From: Candidatus Micrarchaeota archaeon
GTDB taxonomy: Archaea; Micrarchaeota; Micrarchaeia; Anstonellales; Bilamarchaeaceae
Direction: 5' to 3'
Assembly: GCA_038046805.1 (NCBI GenBank)
Contig: JBBSVO010000002.1
Coordinates: 2,528-66,527, forward strand
DNA length: 64,000 nt
Shown one piece after another: positions 20,800 to 62,258 of the stretch; the stretch's first letter is position 1; each line of letters opens with the position of its first letter. Below the pieces are notes generated by a model, which was not told the origin of the DNA, did no database searches, and was given only the letters and a program-made list of their open reading frames with translations. The translations under genes and the position numbers were made by a program.

Positions 20800-20820
20800 T
20801 ATCCTCTGTAATTATTTGTG

Positions 20821-22973: not shown

Positions 22974-22978
22974 TATTT

Positions 22979-23431
22979 ATGATAAACACAGGATTTAAGA
23001 CCCCTGATTTACTGTTCGGAACCCGTCGTGGTCAGGCTTCTACCGAGATGCTTGTTACAGTGGCAACAATCCTGGTATTTACAATTCCGATAATTCTTCT
23101 ACTTTTTGCGCTTTCTCAATATGGTCAGGAATCCACTTCAATCGCACAGGCACATGCAACTGTTCGCATAATTTCGGATTCAATCAACACAGTTTATATC
23201 CAGGGTCCTGGCGCTGAGAAAAGCCTTTTGGTTGGCATACCTGGAAACGCGGATCTTCTCAAAGTAGAGAATGGCGAAGTTTCATTGATACTTAGGACTT
23301 CTGGTGGAATGTATGAGGCAAGCAATCCTTTGCTTACAAATGCATCTGCTGGTTCAGATTTTTCCAATAAATCCGGGTTATTACCAGTGAAAATAAAGAA
23401 TGAAAACGGAGTGGTAGTTGTATATGGATAA
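22979..23431 (+). CDS. Class III signal peptide (archaeal pilin-like) protein 3
   Basis: '...FGTRRG|QASTEMLVTVATILVFTIPIILL' is the classic [KR]G/Q.S.E pattern, with Glu at +5. Confidence 0.75.
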   Translation: MINTGFKTPDLLFGTRRGQASTEMLVTVATILVFTIPIILLLFALSQYGQESTSIAQAHATVRIISDSINTVYIQGPGAEKSLLVGIPGNADLLKVENGEVSLILRTSGGMYEASNPLLTNASAGSDFSNKSGLLPVKIKNENGVVVVYG

Positions 23432-23927: not shown

Positions 23928-23936
23928 GGTGTATTG

Positions 23937-24461
23937 ATGAAAAGACAATTGATGAAAGGACAATATTTCAGCTTTGATGCGATTATTGCTTCGGTCGTTT
24001 TCGTACTCACAGTACTTGCGCTAATGTCTTACTGGAACAGTGTTAAAGCAGGGATGGAAACCTACTCGGATGAAACAACAAAAGAAGCAATTCGCATTTC
24101 AGATCTTTTACTTTCCCCCCCGGAGCCACTTGAAATTACAGATTGCAGCGGAACTGCTGATAAAGAAGTCAAGAGACTTGGTTTTGCGGTTTCCTGGGAA
24201 AATCGTCAATTATCCAAACAACTTCTTACGAATTGCCAATCTATAACTCAGGAGAATCTGCGTTCTTTGCTTGGAACTCCTTACAATGTTTCAATATTTG
24301 TAAATTCCTCAAGCGGATCGTTTGACTCACTTCAGATAGGAAAATCATTTGAGGACACTCCACAGTCAAAAAATGCTGCAAAAGTAAGACGGCTCGTTGC
24401 CCTTCGCGATGATACGGGAGAGGCAACTCTTGCAACAATGGATATTCTCGTGTATCAATAA
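23937..24461 (+). CDS. Class III signal peptide (archaeal pilin-like) protein 5
   Basis: 'MKRQLMKG|QYFSFDAIIASVVFVLTVLALM'. Confidence 0.7.
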   Translation: MKRQLMKGQYFSFDAIIASVVFVLTVLALMSYWNSVKAGMETYSDETTKEAIRISDLLLSPPEPLEITDCSGTADKEVKRLGFAVSWENRQLSKQLLTNCQSITQENLRSLLGTPYNVSIFVNSSSGSFDSLQIGKSFEDTPQSKNAAKVRRLVALRDDTGEATLATMDILVYQ

Positions 24462-34852: not shown

Positions 34853-34989
34853 ATTCCGACTTCTACAGTGATCCACGGAAGTTTTGCGAAACTTCCGCGT
34901 CTCACAGTATAGCAAACCATGAAGTTATTATACGCTATAATCTACGCGGCAGGGGGTGCATACTTTCATGGTTTGATATAGTCGTAAAT
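34853..34989. ncRNA. Candidate structured RNA, copy 1 of a two-copy element (strand unknown)
   Basis: Homologous to 57014-57145. Hairpin H1 is 34876-34897; the long stem H2 pairs 34908-34923 with 34965-34980. Both stems carry compensatory changes between the copies. No conserved ORF is present. Confidence 0.5.
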
Positions 34990-38959: not shown

Positions 38960-40543
38960 ATGTTTATCCCGCCAGAACTGGAACAGGCATGGAAAAGCGC
39001 CTGCAAGATTCTTTTCAAGGAAGAAATCGGAGGTCTGGAAGAATTCGATGGCTGGTTGTCAGCCTATGCACAGACCCCTCGTTTTGAAAAATCGTCTATT
39101 TCCGGCAAAACCGTTGCTTTGGGAGTGGATTGCTTTGCGGAAAATGCCAGATTTATCAGCCATGATGAAGTGGACTTTGCAAAGAATTTCAAGCCACTTA
39201 ACATTAACGAGATAAAAGATATTGATGGTATAATTACCGCCCTTCATGAACGCTTTTATTACACTGGAAACGTGATTCTCGGGAATTCAAGCAACGTGCA
39301 GGATAGCACCGATCTGGTAAATTGCAATTACATCCACAAATCCAGCGCATCAGCAGATTCCAGATACCTCTCCAACTGTCGCTACCTTGAGGGGTGCGAA
39401 TACTGCTTTGGCGTTCTTGGCGCAATGGAAAGCAAATATGCAATCATGTGCACTGGAAGCGGGTTCACGCGCTGTTTTGAATGCCACTCCGCCCAGATAG
39501 CATCGGATTGCTATTTCTGCGGCAGCATAAAGAATTGCTCAAATTGTATGTTCTGCTTTGGAACCCAGCAACGTTCCCATATGATCGGAAATCTTCAGCT
39601 TTCAAGGGAAAAATATGAAAAACTAAAGGATAAGCTCGTGGGGGAGATCGCGCAGGAGTTAAAAGATAAAAAGAAAATTTATTCGTTCTTTGACATACTG
39701 AGGGAATGTAAGAAATACCCGCACAGAGAACTGGGTATAAAAGATACTTCTCCGGAGGAGAGGTTTGACTATGGCCCCATAGAAAAGGCATTCTCGGAAA
39801 CATCCTCGCTGCTGCTTGGAAAGCCTCTATCAAGCATAGAGGAATATTCGGCATTTCTGCAGCGGAACATCCCGGAAAACGGGAGATTGCTGTCCCCATT
39901 CAGCGGAAAATCAGTGCTTGTTGCTTCATATCGTACGCATATCTCAGACCGGTTCGAACTTGGAGGCAGGCTTCTTACGGATTTGGAAGTACGGGAGCTT
40001 GGCAATGTATGCACCGACAAAGACATAGAGAAAATGGACGCCAGCAGCCTGGCTTCGGTGTGCGAAACCATTAATTCCATTGCTTATGGCGACCTTGACA
40101 AGCAAGTGGGTAACAACAGCAACATGCTGGACGCCACTGTGGTCATCAATGCGCATGATTGCTGCCATGGTGCGGCATTCGTGTTGTGCAGGAAATGCGC
40201 GTATTGTTTTTGGCCAGCCCACTGTGAAAACGTATTCGGTTCATTCACGACGTGGCACTCCAGATTCTGCATGAAATGCTTCAACTCCAAAAACCTTACC
40301 CGCTGCTTTGAAGTGGAAAGCTCAAACAACTGCTCGGATTTATATTACTCTCATAACTGCGAAAACGTCCATAATTCCATGTTCTGCTTCAATGTAAAAA
40401 ACATGCGCAATGCCATTGGCAATGTGCAACTCGAGCCGTCGGATTATCCATCAGTTAAATCTTCGCTTATTTCACAAGTCTTTGAAGAACTGGAACGCAA
40501 AAAGAATCTCAAATGGAGTGTTTACAACCTTGGGTGCGATTAA
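38960..40543 (+). CDS. Two-module cysteine-rich repeat protein (uncharacterised family), copy 1
   Basis: The ATG directly abuts the ATPase stop (TAGATG). There is no signal peptide or TM. Each half starts 'P.E.E.A(W/F)....K(I/L)(L/I)F....G.L(E/D)E(F/Y)..(W/F)L' and ends in a Cys ladder '..NLTRCFEVESSNNCSDLYYSHNCENVHNSMFCFNVKNMRNAIGNVQL'. Confidence 0.8.
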   Translation: MFIPPELEQAWKSACKILFKEEIGGLEEFDGWLSAYAQTPRFEKSSISGKTVALGVDCFAENARFISHDEVDFAKNFKPLNINEIKDIDGIITALHERFYYTGNVILGNSSNVQDSTDLVNCNYIHKSSASADSRYLSNCRYLEGCEYCFGVLGAMESKYAIMCTGSGFTRCFECHSAQIASDCYFCGSIKNCSNCMFCFGTQQRSHMIGNLQLSREKYEKLKDKLVGEIAQELKDKKKIYSFFDILRECKKYPHRELGIKDTSPEERFDYGPIEKAFSETSSLLLGKPLSSIEEYSAFLQRNIPENGRLLSPFSGKSVLVASYRTHISDRFELGGRLLTDLEVRELGNVCTDKDIEKMDASSLASVCETINSIAYGDLDKQVGNNSNMLDATVVINAHDCCHGAAFVLCRKCAYCFWPAHCENVFGSFTTWHSRFCMKCFNSKNLTRCFEVESSNNCSDLYYSHNCENVHNSMFCFNVKNMRNAIGNVQLEPSDYPSVKSSLISQVFEELERKKNLKWSVYNLGCD

Positions 40544-42121
40544 ATGTCAGCCCCGCCAGAAATCGAAAAAGCGTTCCAGACTACTTTTAAACTTATTTTC
40601 GGGGAATGCAACGTAAAGCTGGACGAGCTTGCGGACTATCTATATCGCTGGCATTATCCGGTAATCAGGAAAAAGTCCGCGGTATCCGGAAAAGAAACCA
40701 TTATTTCATCAACTTTTTACCAGGATGGCGCCAAATTCATTTCAAACGACGAAATAGATTTCGTAAAGAAGTATGAGCCTTTCGGAATAAACGATATCAA
40801 GGATTTGGATTCCATAGTTGAAGCAATCCGGGAGCGCGACCTGGTTTATTATTCCGGAAACAAGGTTTTCGGGAATTCCAGCAATCTTCATGGAGTTGAT
40901 AATTGCACGGATGTTCATTACGGGTATCAATCGCATAATGTCGCCTCTTCAAAATTTGTCGCGTATTCCTCTTATGTCCGGTACGGAAGCGAGTATATCT
41001 TCGGCTCTGGCTGGTTCCTGAGAAGCAAGTATCTCATACGCGTTATCGGGGCAGATAATCTCACGCGTGCGTTTGAATCCTATGTGTGCGGCACCAGTTC
41101 CGATACGTTCTTTTGCTATAACTGCTTTGGCTCAAGCCATTTGATGTTTTCATTCAACCAGCGGTCAAAAAGATACTGCATAGGGAACATGGAGCTTCCG
41201 AAAGACAAGTACTTCGCTCTCCGCGAAAAGCTCATTACCGAGAGCCGCGAATACATAGAGCGGAACAAATCCTTTTATTCTATTTTTGATGTTCCGCCCG
41301 TTTCCAAGGAGCGCAAAAAGGAGATGGAATTAAACGCGCCAAAGCCAGTGCAAAGAGAGGAAAACTTAAAGCCGATTGATGACGCGTTTAGGGCAACCTC
41401 AAAAGTGATATTCGGGCAGGATATCGGCTCGCTTCAGGAAAACCGCGAGTTTCTCGTTGAGCGGGTGGTTCTCGTAGAGGACATAAAGACTGTTTTTGGC
41501 AATGACGCGTGTTATAGTCCGGTTTTCCTTTTCAGGGATATTCCAAAGCAAAGGATGATTATGCGGGATGAGGAGCAGGAAGCTTCTAAAATGCAGTTTG
41601 AAGTTGGCGAACAGGACGATCTGAAATCACTAATTCAAAAAATCCGGGATATTGCGTTTTACCGGATAGACATGTCCGAGGGCAACATCACGAACGTAAT
41701 CAAAAGCCCGCTGATTTATCATGGAATAAATGCGTATTATGTCGGAGATCTTACATTTGGAAAGAATTGTGCATATTGCACGTATGCCCTGAATGACGAG
41801 TATGTTTTCGGTTGCCACAGGTGCATCCATTCAAAATTCTGTATTCGTTGCGAGGATTCGGTCAATCTTACTGCGTGCTTTGAGATGGACAGTTGCACTA
41901 ATTGCGCTAATTCGATGTTCTGCCATAACTGCGAGAATCTGGACAATTGCATGTTCTGCTTTAATACGAAAAGTAAAAGATATGCGATTGGGAATGTTGA
42001 GGTCGGGCGCGAGGAATACATGAAAATAAAAGAACGGGTTCTTGCAGAAATCCTCATGCAGATAAAAAGCGGGCAAAGGCTGAAATGGGATATCTATAAT
42101 GTGTGGCGTAAGGAAAAATAA
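40544..42121 (+). CDS. Two-module cysteine-rich repeat protein, copy 2
   Basis: The ATG abuts the upstream stop (TAAATG). It is a paralog of copy 1: 'PPEIEKAFQTTFKLIF', 'NLTACFEMDSCTNCANSMFCHNCENLDNCMFCFNTKSKRYAIGNVEV', and the C-terminal 'LKWDIYN'. Confidence 0.8.
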   Translation: MSAPPEIEKAFQTTFKLIFGECNVKLDELADYLYRWHYPVIRKKSAVSGKETIISSTFYQDGAKFISNDEIDFVKKYEPFGINDIKDLDSIVEAIRERDLVYYSGNKVFGNSSNLHGVDNCTDVHYGYQSHNVASSKFVAYSSYVRYGSEYIFGSGWFLRSKYLIRVIGADNLTRAFESYVCGTSSDTFFCYNCFGSSHLMFSFNQRSKRYCIGNMELPKDKYFALREKLITESREYIERNKSFYSIFDVPPVSKERKKEMELNAPKPVQREENLKPIDDAFRATSKVIFGQDIGSLQENREFLVERVVLVEDIKTVFGNDACYSPVFLFRDIPKQRMIMRDEEQEASKMQFEVGEQDDLKSLIQKIRDIAFYRIDMSEGNITNVIKSPLIYHGINAYYVGDLTFGKNCAYCTYALNDEYVFGCHRCIHSKFCIRCEDSVNLTACFEMDSCTNCANSMFCHNCENLDNCMFCFNTKSKRYAIGNVEVGREEYMKIKERVLAEILMQIKSGQRLKWDIYNVWRKEK

Positions 42122-46177: not shown

Positions 46178-46406
46178 AGAAAAATTTGCAGGGGGCAGGA
46201 AATTCCGTCTTCCGTTCCGCGTTTTCAGTTTTGTTTGCGGAATGGAAAACTTTTGAACCTACGAAGGTACTAAACCACGGCGTTTCATAGGGCTAAAATA
46301 AAAAAGCCCACCTAAGCGCCGCGCGTTTGGCCGCTCCGCCACCCCTGCGAGTTGAGATACTTAATCTTCAAACAATATTTTAAATCCCCGCTTCGTTACT
46401 ATTTTT

Positions 46407-48271: not shown

Positions 48272-49138
48272 ATGGTTCCGAGCAGTGCTTCTGATGTTTC
48301 TCCCCTGTACCCAGAGCTTCTAAAGACTATGGACAAGGTTGAACTCGAAGAAGAAATTAACAAAAAGATTTCCTCTTTCAATGGTCTTCTTACCCGGGAT
48401 ATTGCCCTAAAGATGATTGCCCGTGAGAAGGGAATTTATAAATCCGATCTGACTGGTTCAGGTTCTCGCGATTCTGTAATTAATGCCGCACTTTGTCGCA
48501 TCTTGCCAGAAGAGAATTATAGAACTGGCAAGAGATCTCGAGCAATGGAAATAAAGGATTCTGATGGAAAAATTCGTACTCTCAGGCTTTGGAATGATGA
48601 CGTCATTTTATTCGCAAAACTGCGCGTTGGAGATGAAATAACCATAAGCGGTGCATATGAAAAAAATGGGATTCTCAATCTTGGTTATTCTGGAAAGGTT
48701 TCAATTTCAAAGAGTGCATCATTTGCAAATATTGCGGACCTAAAACCCCTTCCAGAGAATTCGTCCGTAAGTATCAGTGGAGAGGTTATTTCACTAAATC
48801 CGGGCGTGTTTGAAGTCTCGGATGGTGTGTCCTCAGTCTCTGTTTTTGGGAATACTCAAACTACTCAAATTATCGCAGTAGGGGATAAAGTGATACTGGA
48901 GAATGCATTAACCGAGTCTGGAAATCTATGTTTTTCAGACAATTCGCGGCTTCTTGTCAAAAAGCCGAAGGCAACCGGTGCCGGTATGTCCGCAATGGGT
49001 AGAAAAGAGATTCTTGAATCAATGGGGCTAAAAGTGGCCGATGACATAACCCTGGAGACAATTGTCAATCTTAAAAAATCTTCCCTGTCCAATGCGAATC
49101 AGGGTAATCCCGTTTTGTGTGGTGCGTCTCATGTCTAA
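48272..49138 (+). CDS. Putative OB-fold ssDNA-binding (RPA-like) protein
   Basis: The N-terminal 'ELEEEINKKISSFNGLLTRDIALKMIAREKGI' resembles archaeal RPA leaders. 'LRLWNDDVILFAKLRVGDEITISGAY' is OB-like. The last codons (SHV*) are read from a duplicated cdc48 start. Confidence 0.4.
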   Translation: MVPSSASDVSPLYPELLKTMDKVELEEEINKKISSFNGLLTRDIALKMIAREKGIYKSDLTGSGSRDSVINAALCRILPEENYRTGKRSRAMEIKDSDGKIRTLRLWNDDVILFAKLRVGDEITISGAYEKNGILNLGYSGKVSISKSASFANIADLKPLPENSSVSISGEVISLNPGVFEVSDGVSSVSVFGNTQTTQIIAVGDKVILENALTESGNLCFSDNSRLLVKKPKATGAGMSAMGRKEILESMGLKVADDITLETIVNLKKSSLSNANQGNPVLCGASHV

Positions 49139-49157
49139 TGCCAGTCTAAAAGTTGCC
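49131..49157 (+). repeat. 27-bp perfect upstream copy of the cdc48 start region
   Basis: 'atgtctaatgccagtctaaaagttgcc' is identical at 49131-49157 and 49279-49305. Confidence 0.9.
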
Positions 49158-49278
49158 ATCCGCTTGAACTGCGGTTCAAATCTCTCGAAAACGGCTGTTT
49201 TCTCGATCCGCTTGAAATTCGCTGCTGCTCATTTCAAATCCGGCAACTTTTTTAATATAATTTACCTTGGTGATGTCT

Positions 49279-51432
49279 ATGTCTAATGCCAGTCTAAAAG
49301 TTGCCGAAGCCTTCCAGAACGATATCGGTAGAAATATTATTCGCATAGATTCAAAGGCAAAGAGCGAGCTTGGCATCTCTACAGGAGATATAGTTAAAAT
49401 CACCGGAAAGAAATCTGCACTTGCAATAGTTTGGCAGGCACATCCGGATGATGAAGGCCTTGACATGATTCGCATGGATGGTATTCTCAGGCAGAATGCA
49501 AGCGTAGGGCTTGGAGATAAGGTAAAAATCGAGCCTGTAGAAACAAAAGAGGCAAAGAAAATTCTTCTTACACCCCGAGAACCAATGAGATACTCTCCTG
49601 GTTTTGATCAATATGTGAAAAAGCGTCTTGTCGGAAAGCCAATATTAAAGGGAAATCTTCTTCCGGTAGGTATTTTTGGAACTTCGATTCCGCTTGTTGT
49701 TGCGCAAACATTTCCTCAGGGACCCGTTATAGTGGGGGAGACCACAGACTTAGTCATAAAGAATGATCCAGTAAAAGATATCGGAAATGTTCCGAATGTT
49801 ACTTATGACGATGTAGGCGGTCTGAAGGAAGCAATCAAAAAAGTTCGCGAAATGGTTGAGCTTCCGCTAAGACATCCTGAAATTTTTGAAAAACTCGGAA
49901 TTGAACCTCCAAAAGGAGTTCTTTTGTATGGTCCGCCCGGCACAGGAAAAACCCTGCTGGTAAAGGCAGTTGCAAATGAGTCAGACGCAAATTTTATTTA
50001 CATCGGAGGTCCGGAAATCGTAAGTAAATATGTTGGTGAGAGTGAAGAGCGCCTCAGGAAACAATTCAAGGAAGCAGAGGAAAACGCCCCTTCAATTATT
50101 TTCATTGATGAAATAGATGCAATCGCTCCAAAACGCGAAGAAGTTGTAGGCGAGGTTGAACGCAGGATGGTTTCCCAGATGCTTACACTAATGGATGGGC
50201 TAAAAGCAAGAGGCGAGGTAATTGTTATCGGCGCAACAAACAGACCCGATGCAATCGATTCCGCACTGCGCAGACCCGGAAGGTTTGACCGTGAAATAGA
50301 GCTCAACGTTCCTGACCGCGATGGCAGACTTGAGATTCTGAAAATTCATGTGCGAAACATGCCTCTTGATAAAGATGTCAAGGTAGAGGAATTGGCGTCT
50401 ATAACTCATGGATACACTGGCGCAGATATCTCTCTTCTTACAAAAGAAGCCGCGATTAAGGCATTAAGGCGAATTCTTCCGGATATAAATCTTGAAGAAG
50501 AATTCATCCCGCAGGAAATCCTGGAAAAGCTTGTGGTAAACCGCACCGACTTTTTTGATGCACTGCGCGAAATACAGCCAAGCGCGCTACGAGAAGTTTT
50601 TGTAGAGCGGCCAAATATCAAATGGAGCGATATCGGCGGAATGGAGCTTATTAAACGGGAGATCGACGAAGCAGTTACTCTTCCTCTCAAAGAGCCAGAG
50701 CTGTTTGAAAGATATGGGATCCGGCCTGTTAAGGGAATACTGTTATATGGCCCTCCGGGAACCGGAAAAACTCTTCTTGCAAAAGCAGTTGCACACGAAT
50801 CAGAGGCAAATTTCATTTCAATAAGCGGTGCACAAGTATTGAGTAAATGGGTCGGAGAATCGGAAAAAACCGTTCGCGAGCTTTTCAGAAGGGCGAGAAT
50901 GGCCGCGCCATGTATTATTTTTGTAGATGAAATCGATGCCATAGCTCCGATAAGAGGTGGCACAGATAGTCATCATGTCACCGAGCGTGTTGTTGACACA
51001 CTTTTAACTGAAATGGATGGTCTCAAAAATCTTAAAGGAGTTATCGTGATTGCGGCTACAAACCGTCCGGATATGCTTGATCAGGCACTTTTGCGTGCTG
51101 GGCGATTTGACCGTGCGATTGAAATAGGACTGCCTGATGAGAAAGCCAGACTTCAGATATTCCAGATTCATACCAAAAAAATGCCTCTTGACAGCGGAGT
51201 TGATTTAAAAGAACTTACAAAAGCCCTGCATGGATTTACAGGTGCTGATATCGAGAATTTGTGTCGCGAGGCCGGAATGAATGCAATCCGGGAAGGCAAA
51301 GAAAAGAAGGATGCAAAGGTTCTTTCGCGTCATTTTGCTTCGGCAATGAAAACCATTACGCCGACACTTAGAAAAGATGATATGGACAGTCTTTCCAAAT
51401 TCAAGGAACTGACCAATGCGATGTATGGATAA
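49279..51432 (+). CDS. cdc48: Cdc48/VCP-type AAA+ ATPase
   Basis: N-domain '[19 protein letters not shown]', plus two AAA modules each with '[10 protein letters not shown]' and 'IIF(I/V)DEIDAIAP'. The start MSNASLK (49279) lies about 25 nt after a 'ttttttaatataat' box. Confidence 0.95.
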
Positions 51433-51457: not shown

Positions 51458-51850
51458 GTGGAATATTCTATGCAACTTTCATTATTTCTAAAACTAGCTG
51501 TTGTTGCTATTGCAATCTCGCTTTTAGTTTTTGCGTTTAGTCCATCAGCCGGACTCCTTTCGCTTGCAAAATACATTGCTCTGGGAATCGGCATCTCAAT
51601 CATAATAACTCTGATTTATCCATCATTTCGCGGTGTTCAAAAAGGAGACAAAGTCATTGTTGTTTCAAATTCCGCGATTCCATCATTATTCGGACGCGTT
51701 GGAATGGCTATGAACGGCGGGAAACTACAGGGTGAAATTAGGATAAAGCTTGATGACGGCAGGGAAATTGCAGGGGTGATTGACAGCTACTCTGGTCTGT
51801 TGTCTCTTCCAAAGGTTCGCGTTGTTTACGAAGAGAGAATAATTGAATGA
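51458..51850 (+). CDS. Small membrane protein (hypothetical; possibly an NfeD-like C-terminal beta domain)
   Basis: Two N-terminal TM helices followed by a soluble roughly 60-aa beta-rich domain, 'GDKVIVV...GEIRIKLDDGREIAGVI'. Confidence 0.45.
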   Translation: MEYSMQLSLFLKLAVVAIAISLLVFAFSPSAGLLSLAKYIALGIGISIIITLIYPSFRGVQKGDKVIVVSNSAIPSLFGRVGMAMNGGKLQGEIRIKLDDGREIAGVIDSYSGLLSLPKVRVVYEERIIE

Positions 51851-51929
51851 TTGGCTGCTGGCTTCTAGCTCCTAGCCACTACCCAGAACCCAGGAGCCAG
51901 AAGCAGTAGGATGATGAAGCAGTGATCTT

Positions 51930-52544
51930 ATGTTTAGCACGAACACCTTTTACATAGAAAAAGACGAAGCGATCCAGATTCTGATATCTGTTCTTGCGAT
52001 TTCCCTTGCGTTAGCTATCTCTCAGGGAGGGTTTGGGCTTTTCACTAGTGCTCAGGGATTGAAGGCATTGATCCTTCTCCTTGCTTTGTTCACTCTTACT
52101 GTTGGCACAGGTTTTATTCTTCATGAAATGGCTCACAAATTGGTTGCCATACAATATGGGGCATATGCGAGATTTCAGATGTGGACTCAGGGATTGCTTT
52201 TGATGTTAGGGCTTTCATTTTTAGGATTTGTTTTTGCAGCTCCTGGTGCAGTGTATATCTATTCGCACAATATTTCCAGAAAGGAAAATGGGATTATTTC
52301 GGTTGCCGGACCGGTTACCAACATTGCGCTTGCAATCGTGTTTATGGCACTTGCAATTTTTGCCCCGGTTTATACGTCCAACACAAATATTTGGTTCATA
52401 GGATTTTACGTTAATTCCTTCCTTGCATTTTTCAACATGCTGCCAATATTCCCATTAGATGGGAGCAAGGTTCTTGCATGGAATGCTGTTGTGTGGGTGG
52501 CAGTTACGGCTGTTGCAGGTTATATGACATTCTTTTTGAGGTAA
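51930..52544 (+). CDS. Site-2 protease family (M50) zinc metalloprotease
   Basis: 'HEMAHKL' (HExxH) and 'FFNMLPIFPLDGSKV' (NxxPxxxLDG); polytopic. Confidence 0.8.
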   Translation: MFSTNTFYIEKDEAIQILISVLAISLALAISQGGFGLFTSAQGLKALILLLALFTLTVGTGFILHEMAHKLVAIQYGAYARFQMWTQGLLLMLGLSFLGFVFAAPGAVYIYSHNISRKENGIISVAGPVTNIALAIVFMALAIFAPVYTSNTNIWFIGFYVNSFLAFFNMLPIFPLDGSKVLAWNAVVWVAVTAVAGYMTFFLR

Positions 52545-52562: not shown

Positions 52563-53132
52563 ATGCGAGGAGCAGAAGCGATTGTTTCGAATTCACGTTT
52601 GCTTGGTCTTCCAGTCGTAATCAAGGATCGGATTCCAAAAACCTATCGCAACAAGACGCTGGACGCTAAACTCAGGACCGAAAGGACAAAACGCGAAGCT
52701 CGTCTTCTCAATAAGGCAAAGATTGCCGGAGTTCCCTGTCCTATAGTTCTGGAAGTTTCTGAATTCGGAATAACAATGACAAAAATTCGCGGAAAACGTG
52801 CGGATTTAATAAAAAATAAAAATTCCGCCAAAACTGCTGGAAAGTATCTTGCACAGCTTCATGCATCCAATCTTATTCATGGGGATTATACTCCGGCAAA
52901 TCTAATCGTCTCGTCTGGTGCATCCCAGAACCTGTTCGTTATTGATTTTGGCCTGGGATTTTTCTCCGAGGATGTGGAAGACAAGGCAATTGATGTGCTG
53001 ACAATGCTTAAGGCAATACCAGAATCCGCACAGGCGCAAAAAGCGTTTCTGAAAGGATATTCGAAATACAAAAAATATTCCGCTGTCCTGAAGAGAGTTG
53101 AGGAAGTGAAGAAAAGGGCGAGGTATGCATAG
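52563..53132 (+). CDS. bud32: KEOPS kinase Bud32 (Kae1-associated kinase)
   Basis: 'RGAEA', 'KDRIPKTYRNKTLDAKLRTERTKREARLL', 'LIHGDYTPANLIV', and 'VIDFGL'. Confidence 0.8.
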   Translation: MRGAEAIVSNSRLLGLPVVIKDRIPKTYRNKTLDAKLRTERTKREARLLNKAKIAGVPCPIVLEVSEFGITMTKIRGKRADLIKNKNSAKTAGKYLAQLHASNLIHGDYTPANLIVSSGASQNLFVIDFGLGFFSEDVEDKAIDVLTMLKAIPESAQAQKAFLKGYSKYKKYSAVLKRVEEVKKRARYA

Positions 53133-53145
53133 TTTGGGTGCGTTC

Positions 53146-53943
53146 ATGGCTATCGATCCGCAAATTCAAAAATCCTGGAAGAGCACATGCAAAATCCTGC
53201 TAAAGGAAGAGATTGGAAACCTTGAGGATTACGAGGAATGGCTGCTTAATTATGTTAATCCGGTGAGTTTCAAGAAATCCGCATTATCTGGAAAGGATGT
53301 AATCGTTTCATCGGAAAAAGCGTGCAGGGGTGCAAAATATCTCGGGCATGCAGAAGTTGAGCAGTACCTGAAGGGCATTGGCACTGCAAAGTTTAACATA
53401 AACGATCTGAAGGATATCGATTCAGCGGTCGGGGCGCTTCAGGAAAGAGCATATTATATCGGAAACGTTGTTCTCGGCAACTCACAAAATGTTGAGATCG
53501 CTAACCGTTGCATCAATTCCTCATTCATTTACAAGACGCAGGACGTTTACGACTGTAAGTTTGTTGCATGCTCTTCTGTCCTCCGGTTTGCGGAATATAT
53601 TTTTGGTGGCAATGCGATTGGTGAAGCGAGCCGGTACAATATAAAAACGTTTGAAACCTACAAGAACGTCCGTTGCATGGAGACAATCCGCAATTATGTT
53701 GCGTCTGACTGCTATTTCACCGGAAGTTTGGAAAGCTGCGGCAACTGCATGTTTTCTTTCAACCAGCGGAACAAGAATTACATGATTGGGAACCACCAAT
53801 TCTCGCAGGAGGAATACCTGAAGCTGAAGGATAAGCTGATTGAGGATATCAGGGAAACGCTCAAGGCAAAGAAAAATCTGCCGTCACTGATAGATATAAT
53901 AAATGGCAGTAACACCGATTCGGGAGGTATCGTCAATGGATGA
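53146..53943 (+). CDS. Cysteine-rich repeat protein, single N-type module (copy 3a)
   Basis: 'MAIDPQIQKSWKSTCKILLKEEIGNLEDYEEWL' parallels the N-termini of 38960 and 40544. It ends in a degenerate ladder, 'CYFTGSLESCGNCMFSFNQRNKNYMIGNHQF'. Confidence 0.75.
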   Translation: MAIDPQIQKSWKSTCKILLKEEIGNLEDYEEWLLNYVNPVSFKKSALSGKDVIVSSEKACRGAKYLGHAEVEQYLKGIGTAKFNINDLKDIDSAVGALQERAYYIGNVVLGNSQNVEIANRCINSSFIYKTQDVYDCKFVACSSVLRFAEYIFGGNAIGEASRYNIKTFETYKNVRCMETIRNYVASDCYFTGSLESCGNCMFSFNQRNKNYMIGNHQFSQEEYLKLKDKLIEDIRETLKAKKNLPSLIDIINGSNTDSGGIVNG

Positions 53944-54799
53944 AATCAGATTCATCGAAGAGCAAGCTCATTCGAAAAATACTCGCGAAGTCGCCACAAA
54001 ATTTCCAAATGTACAAACCGAATCCGAATCCAGCGACTTCACGATCGAATCTGCATTCCAGAGTACTAGTGAAATTCTGCTTGGGAAGCGGCTCACAAAT
54101 CTACAATCATATCGTGAATGGCTGCTCGAGTATGTAGGAGAATCTGTCCGCACGAAGTCCGAAATAAGCGGAAAAACAATTTATGTTCCGGATATCATGT
54201 TCTTCAGTGCGATAAAAAGGAACATGGTTACGCTTGAAGAGTCGCTTGAGCTTGCAAAAAAACAGATTTCCGAGTCAGATGCCAGAAGCCTTACTCTTTC
54301 AAACGCATCCAAAAAACTGGAGAACGTGAAATTCATAACCTCGGATGTTATGCTTGGCCAAAATCTCGACCTGCGGGAAACTTCCACGTGCATGAATGCC
54401 CAGCACTGCCTTGACGGGTATTGGTACATTTATTCAAAGTGCGATGCCTATTGCGCATGGCCAAGGGAAACAGAATATTCATTCGGCAGCTATTTTCTGT
54501 TTGCATCCAAGTTCTGCATAAAGTGCCATAATTCCGTTGCCCTTACAAGATGCTTTGAAGTTAGCGATTCGGCAAATTGCACTGACTGCTATTTCTGCCA
54601 CAATTGCGAGGCATTAAGCAATTGCATGTTCTGTTTTAATGTGAAAAGCATGCGATACGCGATTGGAAATATTGAAATCGGGCGGGAAAAATTCATGGAA
54701 ATAAAAACACGTTTACTCGGGCAGGTTGCAGACGAACTGAAAAAAAATAAGCGGTTGGATTTGAGTATATATAATTTTGGATGTTGGAAAATAAAGTAA
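53936..54799 (+). CDS. Cysteine-rich repeat protein, single C-type module (copy 3b)
   Basis: The ATG overlaps the 3a stop (ATGGATGA). 'IESAFQSTSEILLGKRLTNLQSYREWL' and 'ALTRCFEVSDSANCTDCYFCHNCEALSNCMFCFNVKSMRYAIGNIEI' match the second halves of the fused copies. Confidence 0.75.
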   Translation: MDEIRFIEEQAHSKNTREVATKFPNVQTESESSDFTIESAFQSTSEILLGKRLTNLQSYREWLLEYVGESVRTKSEISGKTIYVPDIMFFSAIKRNMVTLEESLELAKKQISESDARSLTLSNASKKLENVKFITSDVMLGQNLDLRETSTCMNAQHCLDGYWYIYSKCDAYCAWPRETEYSFGSYFLFASKFCIKCHNSVALTRCFEVSDSANCTDCYFCHNCEALSNCMFCFNVKSMRYAIGNIEIGREKFMEIKTRLLGQVADELKKNKRLDLSIYNFGCWKIK

Positions 54800-55214
54800 G
54801 CGTGCGGTCTGAGTAGTTTTGCTTTACCTGAGCGACAGGAAAATTCAGGTGGATGACGAAGTTTTGCCTAAAATCTTAGACAAATGCCTGAGGTATTTTC
54901 TTAGCTCGATTTCCAGGGCTTCAAACCTTCAATTCGCTCGGGAAACCTTGGGAAATAATTTTGTCAGACGTTAATGATGACTGACCAACATTTACGAGTA
55001 AATTTAAGAAAAAATCTGCTAGTCCGGCTAAGCAAACTTTAGCTAATCGTTAGATAGACGAGAACTGCTTAGCCTGAACCATAGAAAAATTGAATTGCTA
55101 CAGAAATGATACATGTGCCTTGAGCAGATAATGGCAATCGTAGGTTGTGAGTGAAGTTCGTTAGAGTTCAAATCAAGCGTATGATCTTTTATATTTATTT
55201 AGGAAAAAAGAATT

Positions 55215-56219
55215 ATGGAGATTTCAAAATTTATTAAAAAACTCCCAAAGGCAGAGTTACATATTCACATAGAAGGGACACTTGAACCGGAGCTTCTATT
55301 TTCTATCGCAAAGAGAAATGGGATACATCCTAAGTATTCAAATGTCCGGGCTCTGAAGAGGGCATACAACTTTAGAAATTTACAGGATTTCCTTGATATT
55401 TACTATGAAGGATGTAGGGTCTTGCGTACAAGTAGGGATTTCTATGAATTGACATTGGCTTATTTTTCGAAAGCACACACACAAGGACTACGGCATGCAG
55501 AGCTTTTTTTTGACCCGCAGACTCACACGTCAAGAGGAATACCATTTCGTGTAGCTATTGAAGGAATTCATATGGGTTGCGTAGAAGCACGCAAACGGTT
55601 TTCCATATCTTCAAAAATCATCATGTGCTTCTTAAGACATCTATCCGAAAGAGAAGCGATTGAAACACTAGAAGAATCTTTGCCTTATCGAAAATGGATT
55701 GATGCGATTGGACTTGATTCCTCAGAACAAGGAAACCCTCCTTCAAAATTTAGACACGTATTTTCTCAAGCACGAAAAGCCGGCTTTCTAACAGTTGCTC
55801 ATGCTGGGGAAGAGGGACCTGCATCATATGTTAGTGAAGCAATCTCTCTATTGAAAGTATCAAGAATTGACCATGGGAATCATGCACTTGATAATAAAAA
55901 ACTTGTTAAGTATTTGGCAAAAAAAAGAATACCTTTAACAGTCTGCCCGCTTTCAAACCTCAAATTGTGCGTAGTTAAAGATCTTCGAAAACATCCCCTA
56001 AAAACGATGCTACTGGCAAAACTTTTAGTTACCATTAATTCAGATGATCCAGCTTATTTTGGGGGATATATTGGAGATAACTATCAGGCCATACAAAAAG
56101 CCATTAAACTTACAAATAAAGAATTAGTACAATTGGCAAAAAATTCTATCGAAGCGTCATTTCTAACACATACAAGGAAAAAATATTTGATGCGGCTTAT
56201 TGATCAATATGCAGAATAA
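55215..56219 (+). CDS. Adenine deaminase of the adenosine-deaminase superfamily (bacterial/eukaryotic ADE type)
   Basis: 'LPKAELHIHIEGTLEPELLF', 'FFDPQTHTSRGIPF', 'GLDSSE.GNPPSKF', 'TVAHAGEEGP', 'SRIDHG', 'PLTVCPLSN', 'INSDDPAYFGGY'. It is collinear with bacterial adenine deaminases as I remember them. Confidence 0.85.
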   Translation: MEISKFIKKLPKAELHIHIEGTLEPELLFSIAKRNGIHPKYSNVRALKRAYNFRNLQDFLDIYYEGCRVLRTSRDFYELTLAYFSKAHTQGLRHAELFFDPQTHTSRGIPFRVAIEGIHMGCVEARKRFSISSKIIMCFLRHLSEREAIETLEESLPYRKWIDAIGLDSSEQGNPPSKFRHVFSQARKAGFLTVAHAGEEGPASYVSEAISLLKVSRIDHGNHALDNKKLVKYLAKKRIPLTVCPLSNLKLCVVKDLRKHPLKTMLLAKLLVTINSDDPAYFGGYIGDNYQAIQKAIKLTNKELVQLAKNSIEASFLTHTRKKYLMRLIDQYAE

Positions 56220-56626
56220 AAAATATGACATCGGCACACCATTTCCTAAGGATTGAGAATTTCGAAGAAATTCGAGAGAATTGAAATCAGCAGATTTCAA
56301 TCAGAAACGCATTGTGTGTCCTGAAACCTCGTAGCTCAGGCAAACGATTCTGAAGAGCGAAGCATTGAAACTTGGCAAAGCAAGTTTCAAAATTTGAAAA
56401 AATTACATTTTTCAAAGCTCTTTGGAAGCTTTTGGCATCAGCCAAATGAGTTCACACCAAGCATGCGGTCTGAGTCGGAAGCTTTTGGTAACAGCCAAAT
56501 AGGACTTCTCCTAGCATGTTTTGTAGTGGGGAACTAAAATGTGGATATCCACATAAAGGTAGGCACTACAAAAGGCACTTGATTTGTATCTGGAAGCTGT
56601 CGAGTAGCACCCAATTTCGCGTACTT

Positions 56627-57074
56627 TCATTTGTCCGCCCATTCATCCCATACTCTTTTCGTTTCCGGCTCTCGCTTTCCGCAAGGCGGCTCTACTTTAA
56701 TTTTTCCGTTGTCGTCAAAGAGTCTTGCATAAACCTGTCCAAGCGTTCGCTCTCCATCCCTTTGGCGCGAGGTTGTTTCATTTATTCCGCCTCGCACGCG
56801 CGTAGCCTGTAATGCCATTATTCTTCTGCGTGTTTTTTTGTTCATAAAAATTTGTTGTCCGTAGTTTTGTGTAAACATCTATGATTTTGGGTAAACACCT
56901 TACGTAGTGATCTGCGCGAACGAAGTGAAGCGCTTTGTTACCGTGATCAACGATAGCGAAGCGCAGAAAGGGAGTAATTTCATGCTTCTCAAGACAGCCC
57001 GGCAGCGCCCCTGATTCTGACTTATAGTGATCCAAGAAAGTCTTGCGAAACTTTCTTGTCTCACTACATAGCAA
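56627..57074 (-). pseudogene. Possible decayed gene (two overlapping frames, no recognisable family)
   Basis: ORFs 56778..57074 and 56627..56878 overlap in different frames on the same strand. Both look protein-like ('FAIVDHGNKALHFVRADHY', 'RTLGQVYARLFDDNGKIKVEPPCGKRE'), but neither is complete. Confidence 0.25.
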
Positions 57075-57145
57075 ACCACGCCGTCATGGCAAAGCAGCAA
57101 TAGTATAGAGTCTTGCATTACTTTCGTGGTTTGCTATAAGTAAAG
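57014..57145. ncRNA. Candidate structured RNA, copy 2 of the two-copy element
   Basis: Aligns with 34853-34989. Hairpin H1 is 57033-57056. Stem H2 pairs 57068-57080 with 57125-57137 (13 bp, perfect). Confidence 0.45.
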
Positions 57146-57194
57146 CGGGCTTCCCCGTTTGCCGTGAAAACCAGCTGTGTTGCCTTTTCCTTTT

Positions 57195-57498
57195 GAGCCA
57201 AAACGCAACATGTCCGAGACGCGAAACTCGGAACCGGAAACGCTTTTGTCTAAGCCACGCTCCGTCGCCATACATCGGCGCTGTAGCGTGTCTGCTCCAC
57301 CCTGTGAACTTACAAGCACAGAGAAATAAACTTATGGCTGCTCCTTTCGGTCTGACCAGATTCGCGTATTCCTCTGCCATATAAGGCAGGGTTTCGACGC
57401 TTACGGAAAAGGGCGCAACAGATTCTCGCAACGCCCGGGGCATTCGGTCCGTCTAAAGGGGATTTACGGTGCCGGGACCCCTAGCCCCGACCTAGCCC
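57195..57498 (-). ncRNA. SRP RNA (7S RNA); ends approximate (+/- 15 nt)
   Basis: The minus strand at 57360-57331 reads 'CUGGUCAGACC-GAAA-GGAGCAGCCAUAAG'. This is the universally conserved helix-8 motif (compare E. coli 4.5S 'GGUCAGGUCCGGAAGGAAGCAGCCAAGG') with a GNRA loop. The 5' end 'GGGCUAGGUCGGGGCUAGGGGUCCC' is G-rich, and 'UUUGGCUC' near 57195 can pair with it. The length of about 304 nt is typical of archaea. A/T-rich promoter boxes lie at 57505-57540. Only short overlapping ORFs occur here. Confidence 0.8.
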
Positions 57499-57759
57499 AG
57501 TAAGTATATGTTATAATAAGGTAATTAAGGTTTATGTAATGGGTTTCGGGTCTTCAGTTCCGCGTTTTGGAAGATAATTATTTATGGTCTCGCATTATGT
57601 GTTCCGAGCGCAAGAGTGTTTGCTAGTAAACCTCTATGGTTTTTGGCAAGTGCCCGTCCTTGTCCTAATATATTTGAAATCCAAAAGGCTTGTGGCACGC
57701 AGATTTAAAAAGAAATTGCTCTATATTCCATCATTCGACCAGATATTTCGGGTGAAACA

Positions 57760-59161: not shown

Positions 59162-60259
59162 ATGGATCTATGTAAAGCATCTGTTTTGAATTCTTCGGAT
59201 ACTCTCTCAAAGGCAACTGAGGAGTTAGTGCGAAATGGTACGGCTGTAATTATTATGAATGAAGGGGTCTACAAGGGCATTGTTGACGACCGCCACCTGA
59301 GTTTTGGCACAAATGATGCAGCAAAGGAAAAATGCGGTTCGGTGTGTGTTAAGGCACCTTCTCTTAGACAAGCTTCTTCGCTGAATGATAAACTAAATGC
59401 CTTTTTGGCAGGTCATTTCAAGGCATTGCCAGTCTTTGATGACTCTGGCAAACTTGAAGGTCTTTATTCCCGCTCGGATTTTCTAAGAGACCTGTTATCC
59501 CAGAGACTCATTCCGGATGCGACTGTTGATTCGATAATGAATTCCCCTGTTTTTACTGTGGATTATGAAGATAAAGTTGGTGCTGTCAGAAGACTTATGA
59601 AACAACACGATGCAAACAAGCTTTTAGTTCTCAAAAACGGAAAGCCATTTGGCATAACTTCTACGTATGATCTTGCCCCCGTTTCCATGAATCCAAAAAA
59701 GAGACGTGGTGCATCCACTATTTCAGAAGTAACCAGTGTGGATGACTTGTCAATCTCTTCGTTTGTACGGGAAGGGGTTCATAGTATCGAACCCGGAAAA
59801 ACAATTGCCGATGCCATGAAAAAAATGGCCGATGCAAAAATCTCCTCGCTTACAGTTATGTCTAGTGGAAAAGCCAGCGGTGTTGTTGCTGCAACGGATA
59901 TATTCAAAATTGTCCAATCCCTGTTGTCTGACAAACAGAATATTCTCATAAGCGGATTGGGCGAAGATGATAAATCTGCGTACAGCTACATCTCCGACAG
60001 AATCTCAAATATCTTAGGTAAGTTCGCATCTATTCCACAGAGATCTGCAAGTGTTCATGTGAAAAAGGGCAAATCTGTTTATTCAGTAAAAGTTCTGCTG
60101 AGTGTTGATGGATTGCCAATTTCCGTTTCTATTGAGGGACACGATCTAAGAAGTGCGGTGGATGCTCTTTCAGATGAGCTTCATGTCGTCCTTCAAAAGA
60201 AAAAGGAAAAACATTTGGAAGATCGCTACAAAAAGTATGTAAAGGGTGACATCTATTAG
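59162..60259 (+). CDS. CBS-domain protein with a C-terminal HPF/RaiA-like (ribosome-associated inhibitor fold) domain
   Basis: Four CBS-like units ('LPVFDDSGKLEGLYSRSDFL', 'KLLVLKNGKPFGITSTYDL', 'SLTVMSSGKASGVVAATDIF'). A roughly 100-aa tail with a beta-alpha-beta-beta-beta-alpha pattern follows, ending 'HDLRSAVDALSDELHVVLQKKKEK'. That ending resembles the '..dmY.AID...dkLerQL.K.K.K' pattern of HPF/YfiA. Confidence 0.65.
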   Translation: MDLCKASVLNSSDTLSKATEELVRNGTAVIIMNEGVYKGIVDDRHLSFGTNDAAKEKCGSVCVKAPSLRQASSLNDKLNAFLAGHFKALPVFDDSGKLEGLYSRSDFLRDLLSQRLIPDATVDSIMNSPVFTVDYEDKVGAVRRLMKQHDANKLLVLKNGKPFGITSTYDLAPVSMNPKKRRGASTISEVTSVDDLSISSFVREGVHSIEPGKTIADAMKKMADAKISSLTVMSSGKASGVVAATDIFKIVQSLLSDKQNILISGLGEDDKSAYSYISDRISNILGKFASIPQRSASVHVKKGKSVYSVKVLLSVDGLPISVSIEGHDLRSAVDALSDELHVVLQKKKEKHLEDRYKKYVKGDIY

Positions 60260-60728
60260 AACGGTCGCGGACATATCTCTCAACGGCCCAGCCAAAGGCC
60301 AAACCAAAGGTCAGGTAAGTTCCGAACTCCTTATTGTAGTTTCTATAATTCTTGTTCTTTTTATTCCGCTAATCGTTGGTTTTTATCTGAAAATATCCGA
60401 AGTTAACGAGTCTATATCCGAAGTTCAGGCCCAATTGGTTGCATCCCGTATTGCAAGCCTGGCGAATTCCATTGGAAATCTCGGTTCTTCATCTGGTGTA
60501 ATCACTGATATATATCTTCCTTCATCTATCGAAGAATTAAACGTGGCTTCTCTTGGAAGTGGTAGCGAAGTCGTTATCCATGCAAGAGTTCGTGGTGGTG
60601 TAAGCGAGCTTGTCGAAATAATAAAATTTCCTGTCGAAAAGACGCTTACGATTGAAAATCCAAGAGAGGGTATGGTAAGGCTTGAAATATCTTCGGAAAA
60701 AGGAATAATAAAAATAAATAAGGTGTGA
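60246..60728 (+). CDS. Class III signal peptide (archaeal pilin-like) protein, stand-alone
   Basis: GTG start overlapping the CBS gene end. 'NGPAKGQTKG|QVSSELLIVVSIILVLFIPLIV', with Glu at +5. Confidence 0.65.
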   Translation: MTSIRTVADISLNGPAKGQTKGQVSSELLIVVSIILVLFIPLIVGFYLKISEVNESISEVQAQLVASRIASLANSIGNLGSSSGVITDIYLPSSIEELNVASLGSGSEVVIHARVRGGVSELVEIIKFPVEKTLTIENPREGMVRLEISSEKGIIKINKV

Positions 60729-61011
60729 CGCTCCAAGGGCTAAATCTGCTTGAACTACGTTCAAGTCTCTCGGGCAAAGCCCTCGATCCCTTGGCTTCCA
60801 ATATTTGCTTTAGGCGGAAGCCGGAGGAATACTCTTGTCGCCTGCGGGTTCGCTCCTCCAATTGAACGCCGATGCGTTCAATGGACCACAAAACGAGTTC
60901 GTTTTGTCGGTCCTCGGTTTGAAAACCAAGGCTTCCTAACACGGTCTGAGCAGGGTAATAAAAATTTTATATTGCTGCTCAAACCGTGTTACCGCGAACC
61001 CTTGGAGCGTC
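60727..61011. ncRNA. Candidate large structured RNA (about 285 nt, multi-helix, strand unknown)
   Basis: A 13-bp perfect closing helix pairs 60727-60739 with 60999-61011. It encloses at least six local helices: 60749-60765 (7 bp), 60793-60799/60816-60822 (7 bp), 60823-60828/60854-60859 (6 bp), 60862-60881 (8 bp), 60883-60913 (13 bp with 1 bulge) and 60940-60953/60975-60988 (13 of 14). No plausible ORF is present. Confidence 0.5.
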
Positions 61012-61025
61012 AGTGAGACGTCTAT

Positions 61026-62258
61026 TCAGCAAATCTCATTGTCCTCGTAAACCGTTCTTCCCCCGAATACAGTTTTCACTGCTTTTCCGCGAAGTTTTTT
61101 CCCTTCGAATGGGCTCCATTTGCATTTTGTTTCTAATTCTTCTCCATTTACTGTCCATTCTTTTTTCAAATCAACAAATGTCAGGTTGGCGCTGAAACCA
61201 ACTGCGATTCTCCCCAGGTTCGTTAATCCGAATATTTCCGCTGGATTTTCAGTCATTCTGCTTATTATCCAGTCTAATTCCAGCATCCGTTTGTTATAAG
61301 CATCGAGCATGAGTGCAAGGCTTGTTTCCAAACCCGGAAATCCCCGTGCTCCATCTCCTTTGTCTTCCAACGTATGTGGCGCATGGTCTGTTGCAATACA
61401 ATCTATATTATTTAATTTTTTCCAAAGCGCTTTTCGGGTTTCCTCCGAACGTAGTGGTGGATTTACAGTTCCAAGTTGTTTTAGTTTATCTGCGTCTTTT
61501 TGCGAAAGAAACAAATAATGCGGTGCAGTTTCAACAGACACATCTGCGCGGAGTTTCTGCCCGCCTGCCTTTTCTTTTGCAATTTCTATTTCCTGTGAGG
61601 TGCTCGCATGCGCTATGTGCAGCTTTCGTTTTGTTTTTTCCGCAAGTGTGACCGCTCGTTTGACTGCAATCTCAGCGGCTTCCTCAGTTCTCTTTCCGCT
61701 ATGTGCTTCCATGTATTTTTGGTCTTCAGCATGGACAGTAATAGGTTTCTTCCTGTCAAAATTTGAAAAATGGCGTTCCATTATTTCATCTTCGGTGACC
61801 AAAAGGTCGCCGGTTGTTTTTCCCATGTAAACCTTTACCGCGATCGGATTTGCTTTTTTTATTTCAGCAAAATTGTCATTCGTTGCACCCATATAAAATC
61901 GCACGTCACACAGCGCTTTCTTTTGTGCGAGTTCTTCCTTTTCCCTGAGCCTGCGTAAGGTGGTGGTCGGCACTTTGTTGTTAGGCATATCAATTACGGT
62001 CGTTATTCCGCCCGCGAGCGCGGCCTTTGTTCCGGTTACAAAATCCTCTTTGTATTCCGATCCCGGTTCTCGTAGGTGAACATGAACATCTATTAATCCA
62101 GGAATCACCATAAGTCCGCCTGCATTAATTTTTTCTTCCCCACCCGCCTCGTTTTCAGGTATTCTGCCAGCTATGCGTGCAATCTTTCCATCTAAAATAA
62201 GAATCTCCTTTTCCGAAATCTTTCCATCTATATATGTGCGGCAATTTGTAATAAGCAT
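61026..62258 (-). CDS. pyrC: Dihydroorotase (cyclic amidohydrolase family)
   Basis: 'GLIDVHVHLREPG', 'GGITTV', 'LHIAHAST', 'ATDHAPH'. Confidence 0.85.
   Translation of the reverse strand: MLITNCRTYIDGKISEKEILILDGKIARIAGRIPENEAGGEEKINAGGLMVIPGLIDVHVHLREPGSEYKEDFVTGTKAALAGGITTVIDMPNNKVPTTTLRRLREKEELAQKKALCDVRFYMGATNDNFAEIKKANPIAVKVYMGKTTGDLLVTEDEIMERHFSNFDRKKPITVHAEDQKYMEAHSGKRTEEAAEIAVKRAVTLAEKTKRKLHIAHASTSQEIEIAKEKAGGQKLRADVSVETAPHYLFLSQKDADKLKQLGTVNPPLRSEETRKALWKKLNNIDCIATDHAPHTLEDKGDGARGFPGLETSLALMLDAYNKRMLELDWIISRMTENPAEIFGLTNLGRIAVGFSANLTFVDLKKEWTVNGEELETKCKWSPFEGKKLRGKAVKTVFGGRTVYEDNEIC

Follow-up and report, generated by a model that had tools for sequence, protein, structure and literature searches.

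Some DPANN genomes are dense in MITEs, or miniature inverted-repeat transposable elements (PMC11602168). Other short palindromic repeats, such as the repetitive extragenic palindromic (REP) sequences and bacterial interspersed mosaic elements (BIMEs) of Enterobacteria, BOX and RUP of Streptococcus pneumoniae and the Correia elements of Neisseria, are intergenic and often lie just past stop codons or between convergent genes. An element in a similar position, here called element I, is carried by a Candidatus Micrarchaeota archaeon (assembly GCA_038046805.1, contig JBBSVO010000002.1, positions 2,528 to 66,527; this whole stretch of 64,000 nt is referred to as the window, and coordinates without a contig handle refer to it). 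Element I (60726-61012, 287 bp) is enclosed by a perfect 14-bp terminal inverted repeat, contains about eight internal hairpins and separates a pilin-like gene from the convergent pyrC gene. A preliminary description had proposed it as a candidate novel large structured RNA. In our view it is probably repeat DNA of the MITE, REP or BOX kind, palindromic, modular and non-autonomous, that was inserted in this lineage specifically. This reading is favoured because of the presence/absence pattern at the junction, the 14/14 terminal inverted repeat, the dispersed and covarying modules, the sister insertions in the same genome, the strand symmetry of the fold and the lack of a match to any Rfam family.

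The two flanking genes had been described correctly, as confirmed by the open reading frame (ORF) features and a Pfam match. The pilin-like gene (60246-60728, plus strand) encodes a 160-aa protein with a class-III signal-peptide-like N-terminus, a homologue of which was annotated as pseudopilin PulG by the Joint Genome Institute. The pyrC gene (61026-62258, minus strand) encodes a 410-aa dihydroorotase (Pfam Amidohydro_1/DHOase), and its product matches that of the Candidatus Micrarchaeota metagenome-assembled genome GCA_964366365.1 (contig CAYISX010000005.1). In the closest other lineage, L001 (UBA10214; pyrC 91% at the amino acid level), the stop codons of the pilin-like gene and pyrC are only 4 nt apart, and 10 contigs of the L001 lineage (L074-L083), obtained from various samples, have the same junction. 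In more distant Micrarchaeota (L084, L002, L003, L005 and L006) the convergent pair is also kept, with gaps of -12 to +14 nt. Element I is thus missing at the orthologous junction in all the relatives examined, which represent six lineages. The BLAST breakpoints against L001 are clean, window position 60724 corresponding to L001 7242 and 61042 to L001 7217. Since the convergent pair is so closely spaced in six related lineages (-12 to +14 nt), the approximately 293 extra nucleotides are, by parsimony on the sequences compared, a derived insertion in the lineage of the window. Nothing similar to the whole element I unit was present in any locus compared.

The source being a metagenome-assembled genome, an assembly artefact or chimera deserves mention as a general caveat. 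Its probability is negligible, since all the same-species contigs that were checked, assembled independently from different samples and sources (NCBI, ENA and Logan), carry element I with 100% identity. An identical pyrC is carried by eight contigs.

The internal organisation of element I is largely as first described. The closing helix, given as 13 bp, is present and perfect, and is in fact one base longer on each side: the left arm TGACGCTCCAAGGG (60726-60739, plus strand) pairs 14/14 with the right arm CCCTTGGAGCGTCA (60999-61012, plus strand). The first three bases of the left arm form the stop codon of the pilin-like gene, and its CCAAGGG can alternatively pair with 60788-60794, thereby closing motif A (see below) alone. 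The 13-mer closing arm has no further copy in the window. Moreover, CCGCGAACCCTTGG (60992-61005), in the region of the right arm, is an 86% direct repeat of CCTCGATCCCTTGG (60781-60794), located after motif A. A direct check of the sequence also found every internal hairpin that had been listed. On the plus strand these comprise CTTGAAC/GTTCAAG (60749-55 and 60759-65), which is hairpin 1 of motif A; GGCTTCC/GGAAGCC (60793-99 and 60816-22, the whole spanning 60793-60822), also recovered by an inverted-repeat search; GGAGGA/TCCTCC with a small internal stem (60823-28 and 60854-59, the whole spanning 60823-60859); ATTGAACGC-cgat-GCGTTCAAT (60861-82), which is the hairpin of motif C; and GACCACAAAACG-agtt-CGTTTTGTCGGTC (60884-913). 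The second GGCTTCC, suggested as an alternative or pseudoknot partner of GGAAGCC, is indeed present at 60930-60936. A long hairpin of 16 bp with an A/T-rich loop, TAATAAAAATTTTATATTG, occupies 60937-60991 (plus strand); it includes CTCAGACC on the minus strand, and its single C.A mismatch on the plus strand becomes a G.U pair on the minus strand.

Between element I and the stop codon of pyrC lies a 13-nt spacer, GTGAGACGTCTAT (61013-61025, plus strand), with the palindrome AGACGTCT. The spacer is likewise missing in the relatives, and together with element I it makes up the ~293 extra nt. A 7/8 direct repeat between GTGAGACG in the spacer and GTGTGACG (60723-60730) overlaps the inverted repeat and is a candidate target duplication; the candidates are either GTG (3 bp) or GTGWGACG (7/8), the junction of the relatives being too diverged for reconstruction of an empty site.

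The strong multi-hairpin fold ascribed to this gap was borne out by comparison with shuffled sequences. The minimum free energy (MFE) of the 301-nt region is -131.2 kcal/mol on the plus strand (z -8.2) and -137.4 kcal/mol on the minus strand (z -11.1), a stability reached by none of 100 dinucleotide shuffles. At -0.47 kcal/nt, the gap holding element I is also the most structured of the 19 intergenic gaps in the window, compared with -0.11 to -0.41 kcal/nt for the others.

Modules also found at other intergenic sites, both in its own and in other archaeal genomes, make up the mosaic of element I: motif A, motif C and a motif-C-like unit. When element I was compared with the window by BLAST, a 30-nt match at 49158-49187 led to motif A. 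Its consensus consists of ATCYG, hairpin 1 (yTTGAAC..GTTCAAr), TCTCTC, a variable hairpin 2 and TCGATCC. The copy in element I (60743-60789, plus strand) reads ATCTG, CTTGAAC tac GTTCAAG, TCTCTC, GGGC aaa GCCC and TCGATCC. A covariance model built from six copies, with that of element I excluded, scored the latter at 39.9 bits (E 3e-8) and gave exactly three strong copies in the window, at 49157-49209 (plus), 56250-56307 (minus) and 60743-60789 (plus). The copy at 56250-56307 lies inside a hairpin-rich gap of 296 nt (56220-56515). A fourth copy from the same genome was found just beyond the window (L094 14678-14730). In total, motif A has four copies in the ~82 kb of this genome that was examined (the window plus ~18 kb) and six in five other archaeal contigs, of which L064, L069, L070 (two copies) and L071 were detected by a metagenome scan for the motif core and L006 by a descriptor search. 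The copy in L064 adjoins a tRNA-splicing endonuclease gene, while those in L070 are near a Pelota gene. In the metagenome scan 4 of 10 loci were genuine; the remainder were coding or chance matches, for example the N-terminus of Ffh (L068, L073) or actinobacterial sequence (L065, L072).

The pairing of motif A is conserved among its ten copies. As many as 93.9% of the cells are paired, 11 of the 14 pairs show double-sided changes, including all seven pairs of hairpin 2, and no pair varies on one side only. None of 500 shuffles matched the observed values, and sliding the partners abolished the pairing. A tRNA-like nature of hairpin 1 was ruled out by its 3-4 nt loop and the absence of a T arm.

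Motif C is present in element I on the minus strand (60840-60889) and is made up of CCAT, then a 9-bp hairpin in which the ATCG loop is invariant and a C mismatch is conserved, then GG and GAACCCGCAG. It recurs with compensatory changes at another locus in L001 (12130-12173) and L085 (8550-8593); the covariance model for motif C found three matches (L001, L085 and element I), which are its own three seed sequences. Next to it, in inverted orientation, lies a diverged motif-C-like unit (60881-60932, plus strand) that consists of the hairpin GACCACAAAACG agtt CGTTTTGTCGGTC and GAAAACCAAGGC and was matched weakly (16.7 bits, E 0.075). A second dispersed family of structured repeats with compensatory changes, motif B (GATCCAcGaAAGTtTTGCGA..AACTTtCgcGTCTCAC..CAAACCAcG..CgTGGTTTg), has three copies, at window 34860-34985, window 57020-57145 and L094 14436-14615. 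One of these holds a nested 57-nt insertion in its loop, and both nested and inverted arrangements of modules were seen among motifs B and C. Motifs B and A also occur together in L094 (14430-14800), in a hairpin-rich convergent-intergenic block of 370 nt with an MFE of -150.9 (z -8.9). This block, about 4.5-5 kb past the left end of the window, is a larger sibling of element I. Further short intergenic repeats of this genome were noted at window 529-609, window 51836-51944 and L094 10248-10356, and at window 3126-3162, 3331-3375 and 4823-4867; among them are a GC-rich hairpin (CTGCTTCTGGCTCCTGG...CTAGGAGCTAGAAGCCAGCAG) and a repeat of 37-45 nt whose copies share 84-86% identity. The region 56755-57294 has ~330 nt more than L001, as judged from a noisy alignment.

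Sister insertions were found at two other sites of the window. Element II (49131-49305, plus strand) consists of a 121-nt insert (49158-49278) between two perfect 27-bp copies of the target sequence ATGTCTAATGCCAGTCTAAAAGTTGCC (49131-57 and 49279-305), which correspond to the duplicated start of CDC48. Its motif A copy (49157-49209) begins at the last base of the left 27-bp repeat, and its 10-bp closing helix is formed between AAAAGTTGCC (49148-57), which belongs to the target, and GGCAACTTTT (49242-51), an inverted copy inside the insert. In the relatives L085 and L086 a gene here called geneX and CDC48 overlap at ATGTCTAA, with no insert. Element II also places a TATA-like sequence, TTTTTTAATATAA, upstream of CDC48. 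Where it separates geneX from CDC48, an extra ATGTCT is present besides the duplication, and the geneX stop codon is retained in the duplicated copy. At the second site, 15-bp direct repeats of ACTCAGACCGCAYGC (54800-14 and 56461-75), the native copy of which is kept in L001 and L085, enclose a 1646-bp segment with a copy of motif A and an adenosine deaminase gene (55215-56219). The same site in L001 (10986-12175, equivalent to window 54800-56475) carries instead a Fic-domain gene and a 112-nt motif C hairpin element, the latter enclosed by an 8-9 bp repeat, (A/C)CTCAGACC.

These two sites bear on another explanation, in which element I is the scar or boundary of a site-specific integration or cassette exchange. 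The modules would then be att- or attC-like sites of an integrase- or casposase-like system, and element I an 'empty', non-coding cassette. The long direct repeats at CDC48 (27 bp) and around the adenosine deaminase segment (15 bp) agree with it, as does the occurrence at one site of adenosine deaminase in the window and Fic in L001, both beside structured modules; the CDC48 insert, moreover, reinstates the start of the gene and brings a TATA-like box with it, as integrative elements do. However, element I shows no long target duplication, the 121-nt insert would be too small for an integrative element unless mostly deleted, and neither integrase nor Cas1 was found in the window. On direct reading, the closing arms (TGACGCTCC..., AAAAGTTGCC...) and the hairpins of motif A also do not fit the core and order of integron attC sites (R'' RYYYAAC ... 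R' GTTRRRY). We therefore regard an integration scar as rather improbable. The ends of IS200/IS605 elements and ORB/origin sequences were considered too, and their patterns do not fit on direct reading.

As regards known RNAs, Rfam 15 returned no family for element I, either at gathering thresholds over the whole window or at E<=10 for 60500-61300 on both strands, where the best scores were 11-15 bits against thresholds of 45-103. ARAGORN predicted no tRNA or tmRNA there. Both results agree with the earlier failure to recognise RNase P, signal recognition particle (SRP), tRNA or rRNA signatures by eye. The Rfam models scanned comprised those of RNase P, SRP and tmRNA. RNase P RNA (archaeal types A, M and T, bacterial types A and B) was rejected for want of a cmscan match and of the CR-I (GAGGAAAGUCC)/CR-V/P4 signatures, and the resemblance of AGGAAGCC...GGCUUCC on the minus strand to P4 is only superficial. 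An essential housekeeping RNA is ruled against by the absence of element I at the orthologous junction in relatives. The sole Rfam RNA of the window is the SRP RNA (57248-57502, minus strand), 3.2 kb from element I, with a counterpart in L001 (10392-10648). It scored 66 bits with Bacteria_large_SRP (above gathering) and 54 bits with Archaea_SRP (below gathering), and is thus a divergent archaeal SRP RNA.

This SRP RNA provides an internal reference for the behaviour of the two strands. Its MFE is -92.8 kcal/mol in the sense and -78.3 kcal/mol in the antisense orientation, a difference of 14.5 kcal/mol, and 16% of its pairs are G.U. Element I, in contrast, folds at -130.4 kcal/mol (plus) and -136.7 kcal/mol (minus), with 5% G.U pairs on either strand. 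Because it folds equally on both strands and almost purely by Watson-Crick pairing, unlike the SRP RNA, element I bears the signature of a DNA palindrome. The strand symmetry, the few G.U pairs and the lack of one-sided changes speak for a structure that was selected or arose as DNA, or for palindromes formed very recently.

The proposal of a novel large structured RNA can now be assessed. Its first part stands: the structure is real and significant, the Rfam scan revealed no family, the shuffle-folding placed the structure far beyond chance, and modules (motifs A and C) covary. The second part, a single 285-nt gene, is not supported, as the unit is missing at the junction in every relative examined, and so fails the conservation test named in the preliminary description itself, and as no homologue of the whole unit was found. 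What was taken for a closed multi-branch RNA is more aptly described as a mosaic of hairpin repeats, with dispersed modules, inside a terminal inverted repeat. A stand-alone gene for a non-coding RNA of ~285 nt, most likely on the minus strand and recently acquired horizontally or translocated, would still suit the very stable fold, the long closing helix as in SRP and RNase P RNAs, the absence of matching families and the covariation of submodules. The minus strand would be favoured, since two C.A mismatches become G.U on it and it folds slightly better. Against such a gene, the modules occur independently and in either orientation at other loci, and the near-perfection of almost all helices suggests that they are young. 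To this are added the absence of the unit from the orthologous site, the near-equal folding of the strands with only 5% G.U and the lack of a TATA-like box upstream of element I on the minus strand. Taken together, these features make an RNA gene quite unlikely. On the plus strand, the AT-rich stretch upstream of element I is conserved coding sequence.

The position of element I exactly between two convergent stop codons could also suggest a cis-acting 3' untranslated region or a terminator/insulator, selected in place between the two transcription units. T-tracts occur on both of its strands. Motif A is sense-oriented and 13-19 nt past a stop codon at window 60743, window 49157 and L069, and is found further downstream in L064 (~60 nt) and in a convergent gap of L094 (~250 nt). 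However, motif A is also found in antisense orientation and in divergent promoter regions, a gap of -12 to +14 nt suffices in the six related lineages, and the structure far exceeds the needs of a terminator. Termination in archaea depends, furthermore, on oligo-T tracts and not on hairpins. Selection as an insulator is therefore very unlikely to be the origin of element I and is best viewed as a possible side effect of its insertion.

Several observations weigh against the insertion of modular repeat DNA that we favour. No second full-length copy of element I was found in the ~82 kb of its own genome or in viral contigs, in which searches with the inverted repeat-gap-inverted repeat and motif A patterns gave nothing or GC-rich coding chance matches. 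Contigs of up to 169 kb assemble through element I, which is consequently not a high-copy identical repeat. Among the ~68 ORFs of the window, no transposase, integrase or TnpB was recognised with Pfam. Spurious ORFs within element I had no match either (a 90-aa plus-strand frame against 5.8 billion proteins and an 80-aa minus-strand frame against 1.84 billion representatives). Nor is the target duplication of element I clear-cut (GTG, 3 bp, or GTGWGACG, 7/8). The C.A mismatches on the plus strand that become G.U on the minus strand, seen in two helices, give a weak hint of a minus-strand RNA. Finally, the covariation of modules across genomes shows selection on hairpins and would equally fit a function at the RNA level.

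If element I is nevertheless an insertion of modular repeat DNA, an enzyme acting in trans, with specificity for the conserved hairpins and linkers, would have spread its modules. Their recognition would probably take place on DNA, possibly single-stranded, given the Watson-Crick-only and strand-symmetric pairing, and the mobilising enzyme would presumably be encoded elsewhere than nearby. Once inserted, element I would become part of the 3' end of the pilin-like mRNA, the pyrC mRNA or both by co-transcription, and its very stable fold could space the convergent genes apart or block read-through or exonucleases between them; it would not itself constitute an independent, conserved RNA gene. 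A more specific proposal, put forward tentatively and as unlikely, is that motifs A, B and C are the recognition hairpins of a hitherto undescribed DPANN mobilisation system with uncommonly long target duplications of 15-27 bp, or else that motif A is a new trans-genomic RNA motif. Such a system may insert, exactly where two genes meet, segments that are rich in structure and sometimes carry a promoter or a gene, with a closing helix derived partly from the target. Motif A could alternatively have a function of its own, such as protein binding or processing, and be carried around by insertions. These motif families appear to be undescribed, having no Rfam match; our literature searches found no paper on them, only a general census of MITEs that mentions DPANN (PMC11602168).

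These results have consequences for the annotation of DPANN genomes, in which a new RNA gene should not be called on a long closing helix and extreme folding energy alone, while comparison of the orthologous site in relatives resolves the question quickly. They also indicate that families of structured intergenic repeats are still tolerated, and propagated, in these ultra-small and streamlined genomes of archaea. The repeats divide genes that overlap, contribute stop codons and promoters and accompany cassette swaps, as with adenosine deaminase and Fic. The covarying motifs A and C provide covariance-model handles for a phylum-wide census and for a search for the mobilising enzyme.

Three further features of this genome were noted. 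A probable two-intron tRNA gene (46187-46348, minus strand) was missed by default ARAGORN and by Rfam. It has an acceptor stem GCAGGGG/CCCCTGC followed by A, a class-II-like body, an anticodon loop CTTGAAA (Ser-UGA) once a 27-nt intron is removed, and a T arm (GTAGG-TTCAAAA...CCTGC) broken by a hairpin intron of ~51 nt; relaxed ARAGORN settings recovered the first intron only. About ten consecutive ORFs of 156-547 aa, none with a Pfam match, occupy 13478-24458. A set of paralogous Pfam-less genes is present at four loci of this genome (window 38960-40540, 40544-42118 and 53125-54796, and L089 2791-4380), with 56-69% nucleotide similarity by self-BLAST.

In its size of ~250-300 nt, its closing helix and its multi-hairpin architecture, element I resembles RNase P and SRP RNAs, from which it differs by its lack of conservation in relatives, its strand-symmetric fold and its few G.U pairs. 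Element I can also be compared with MITEs: it is a non-coding, intergenic element of 287 bp, its terminal inverted repeat of 14/14 bp exceeds the 10 bp taken as the minimum for a MITE, and it shows presence/absence polymorphism at orthologous sites. Unlike typical MITEs, only its modules recur in the ~82 kb, with no second full-length copy, and it has no clear target-site duplication; no parental insertion sequence (IS) with the same ends is known, and the ~68 window ORFs gave no transposase or integrase match in Pfam. The closing inverted repeat of element II is, moreover, partly derived from the target, unlike the fixed ends of transposons. The REP, BIME, BOX and Correia families differ in that the host here is archaeal (DPANN), with module sequences unrelated to the bacterial ones; no REP-associated tyrosine transposase (RAYT) or IS partner was found among the ~68 window ORFs, and the sister elements have target duplications of 15-27 bp, as against the typical TA or 2-10 bp. 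With these families element I nonetheless shares a presence that differs among close relatives and, as its location suggests, a probable co-transcription into very stable RNA structures. Some of these elements, such as Correia, bring promoters, as element II would do for CDC48 with its predicted TATA-like box. The architecture is alike as well: as in REP, BIME, BOX and Correia elements, the units are mosaics of short hairpin modules whose pairing is kept by compensatory changes, and motifs A, B and C are dispersed in both orientations.

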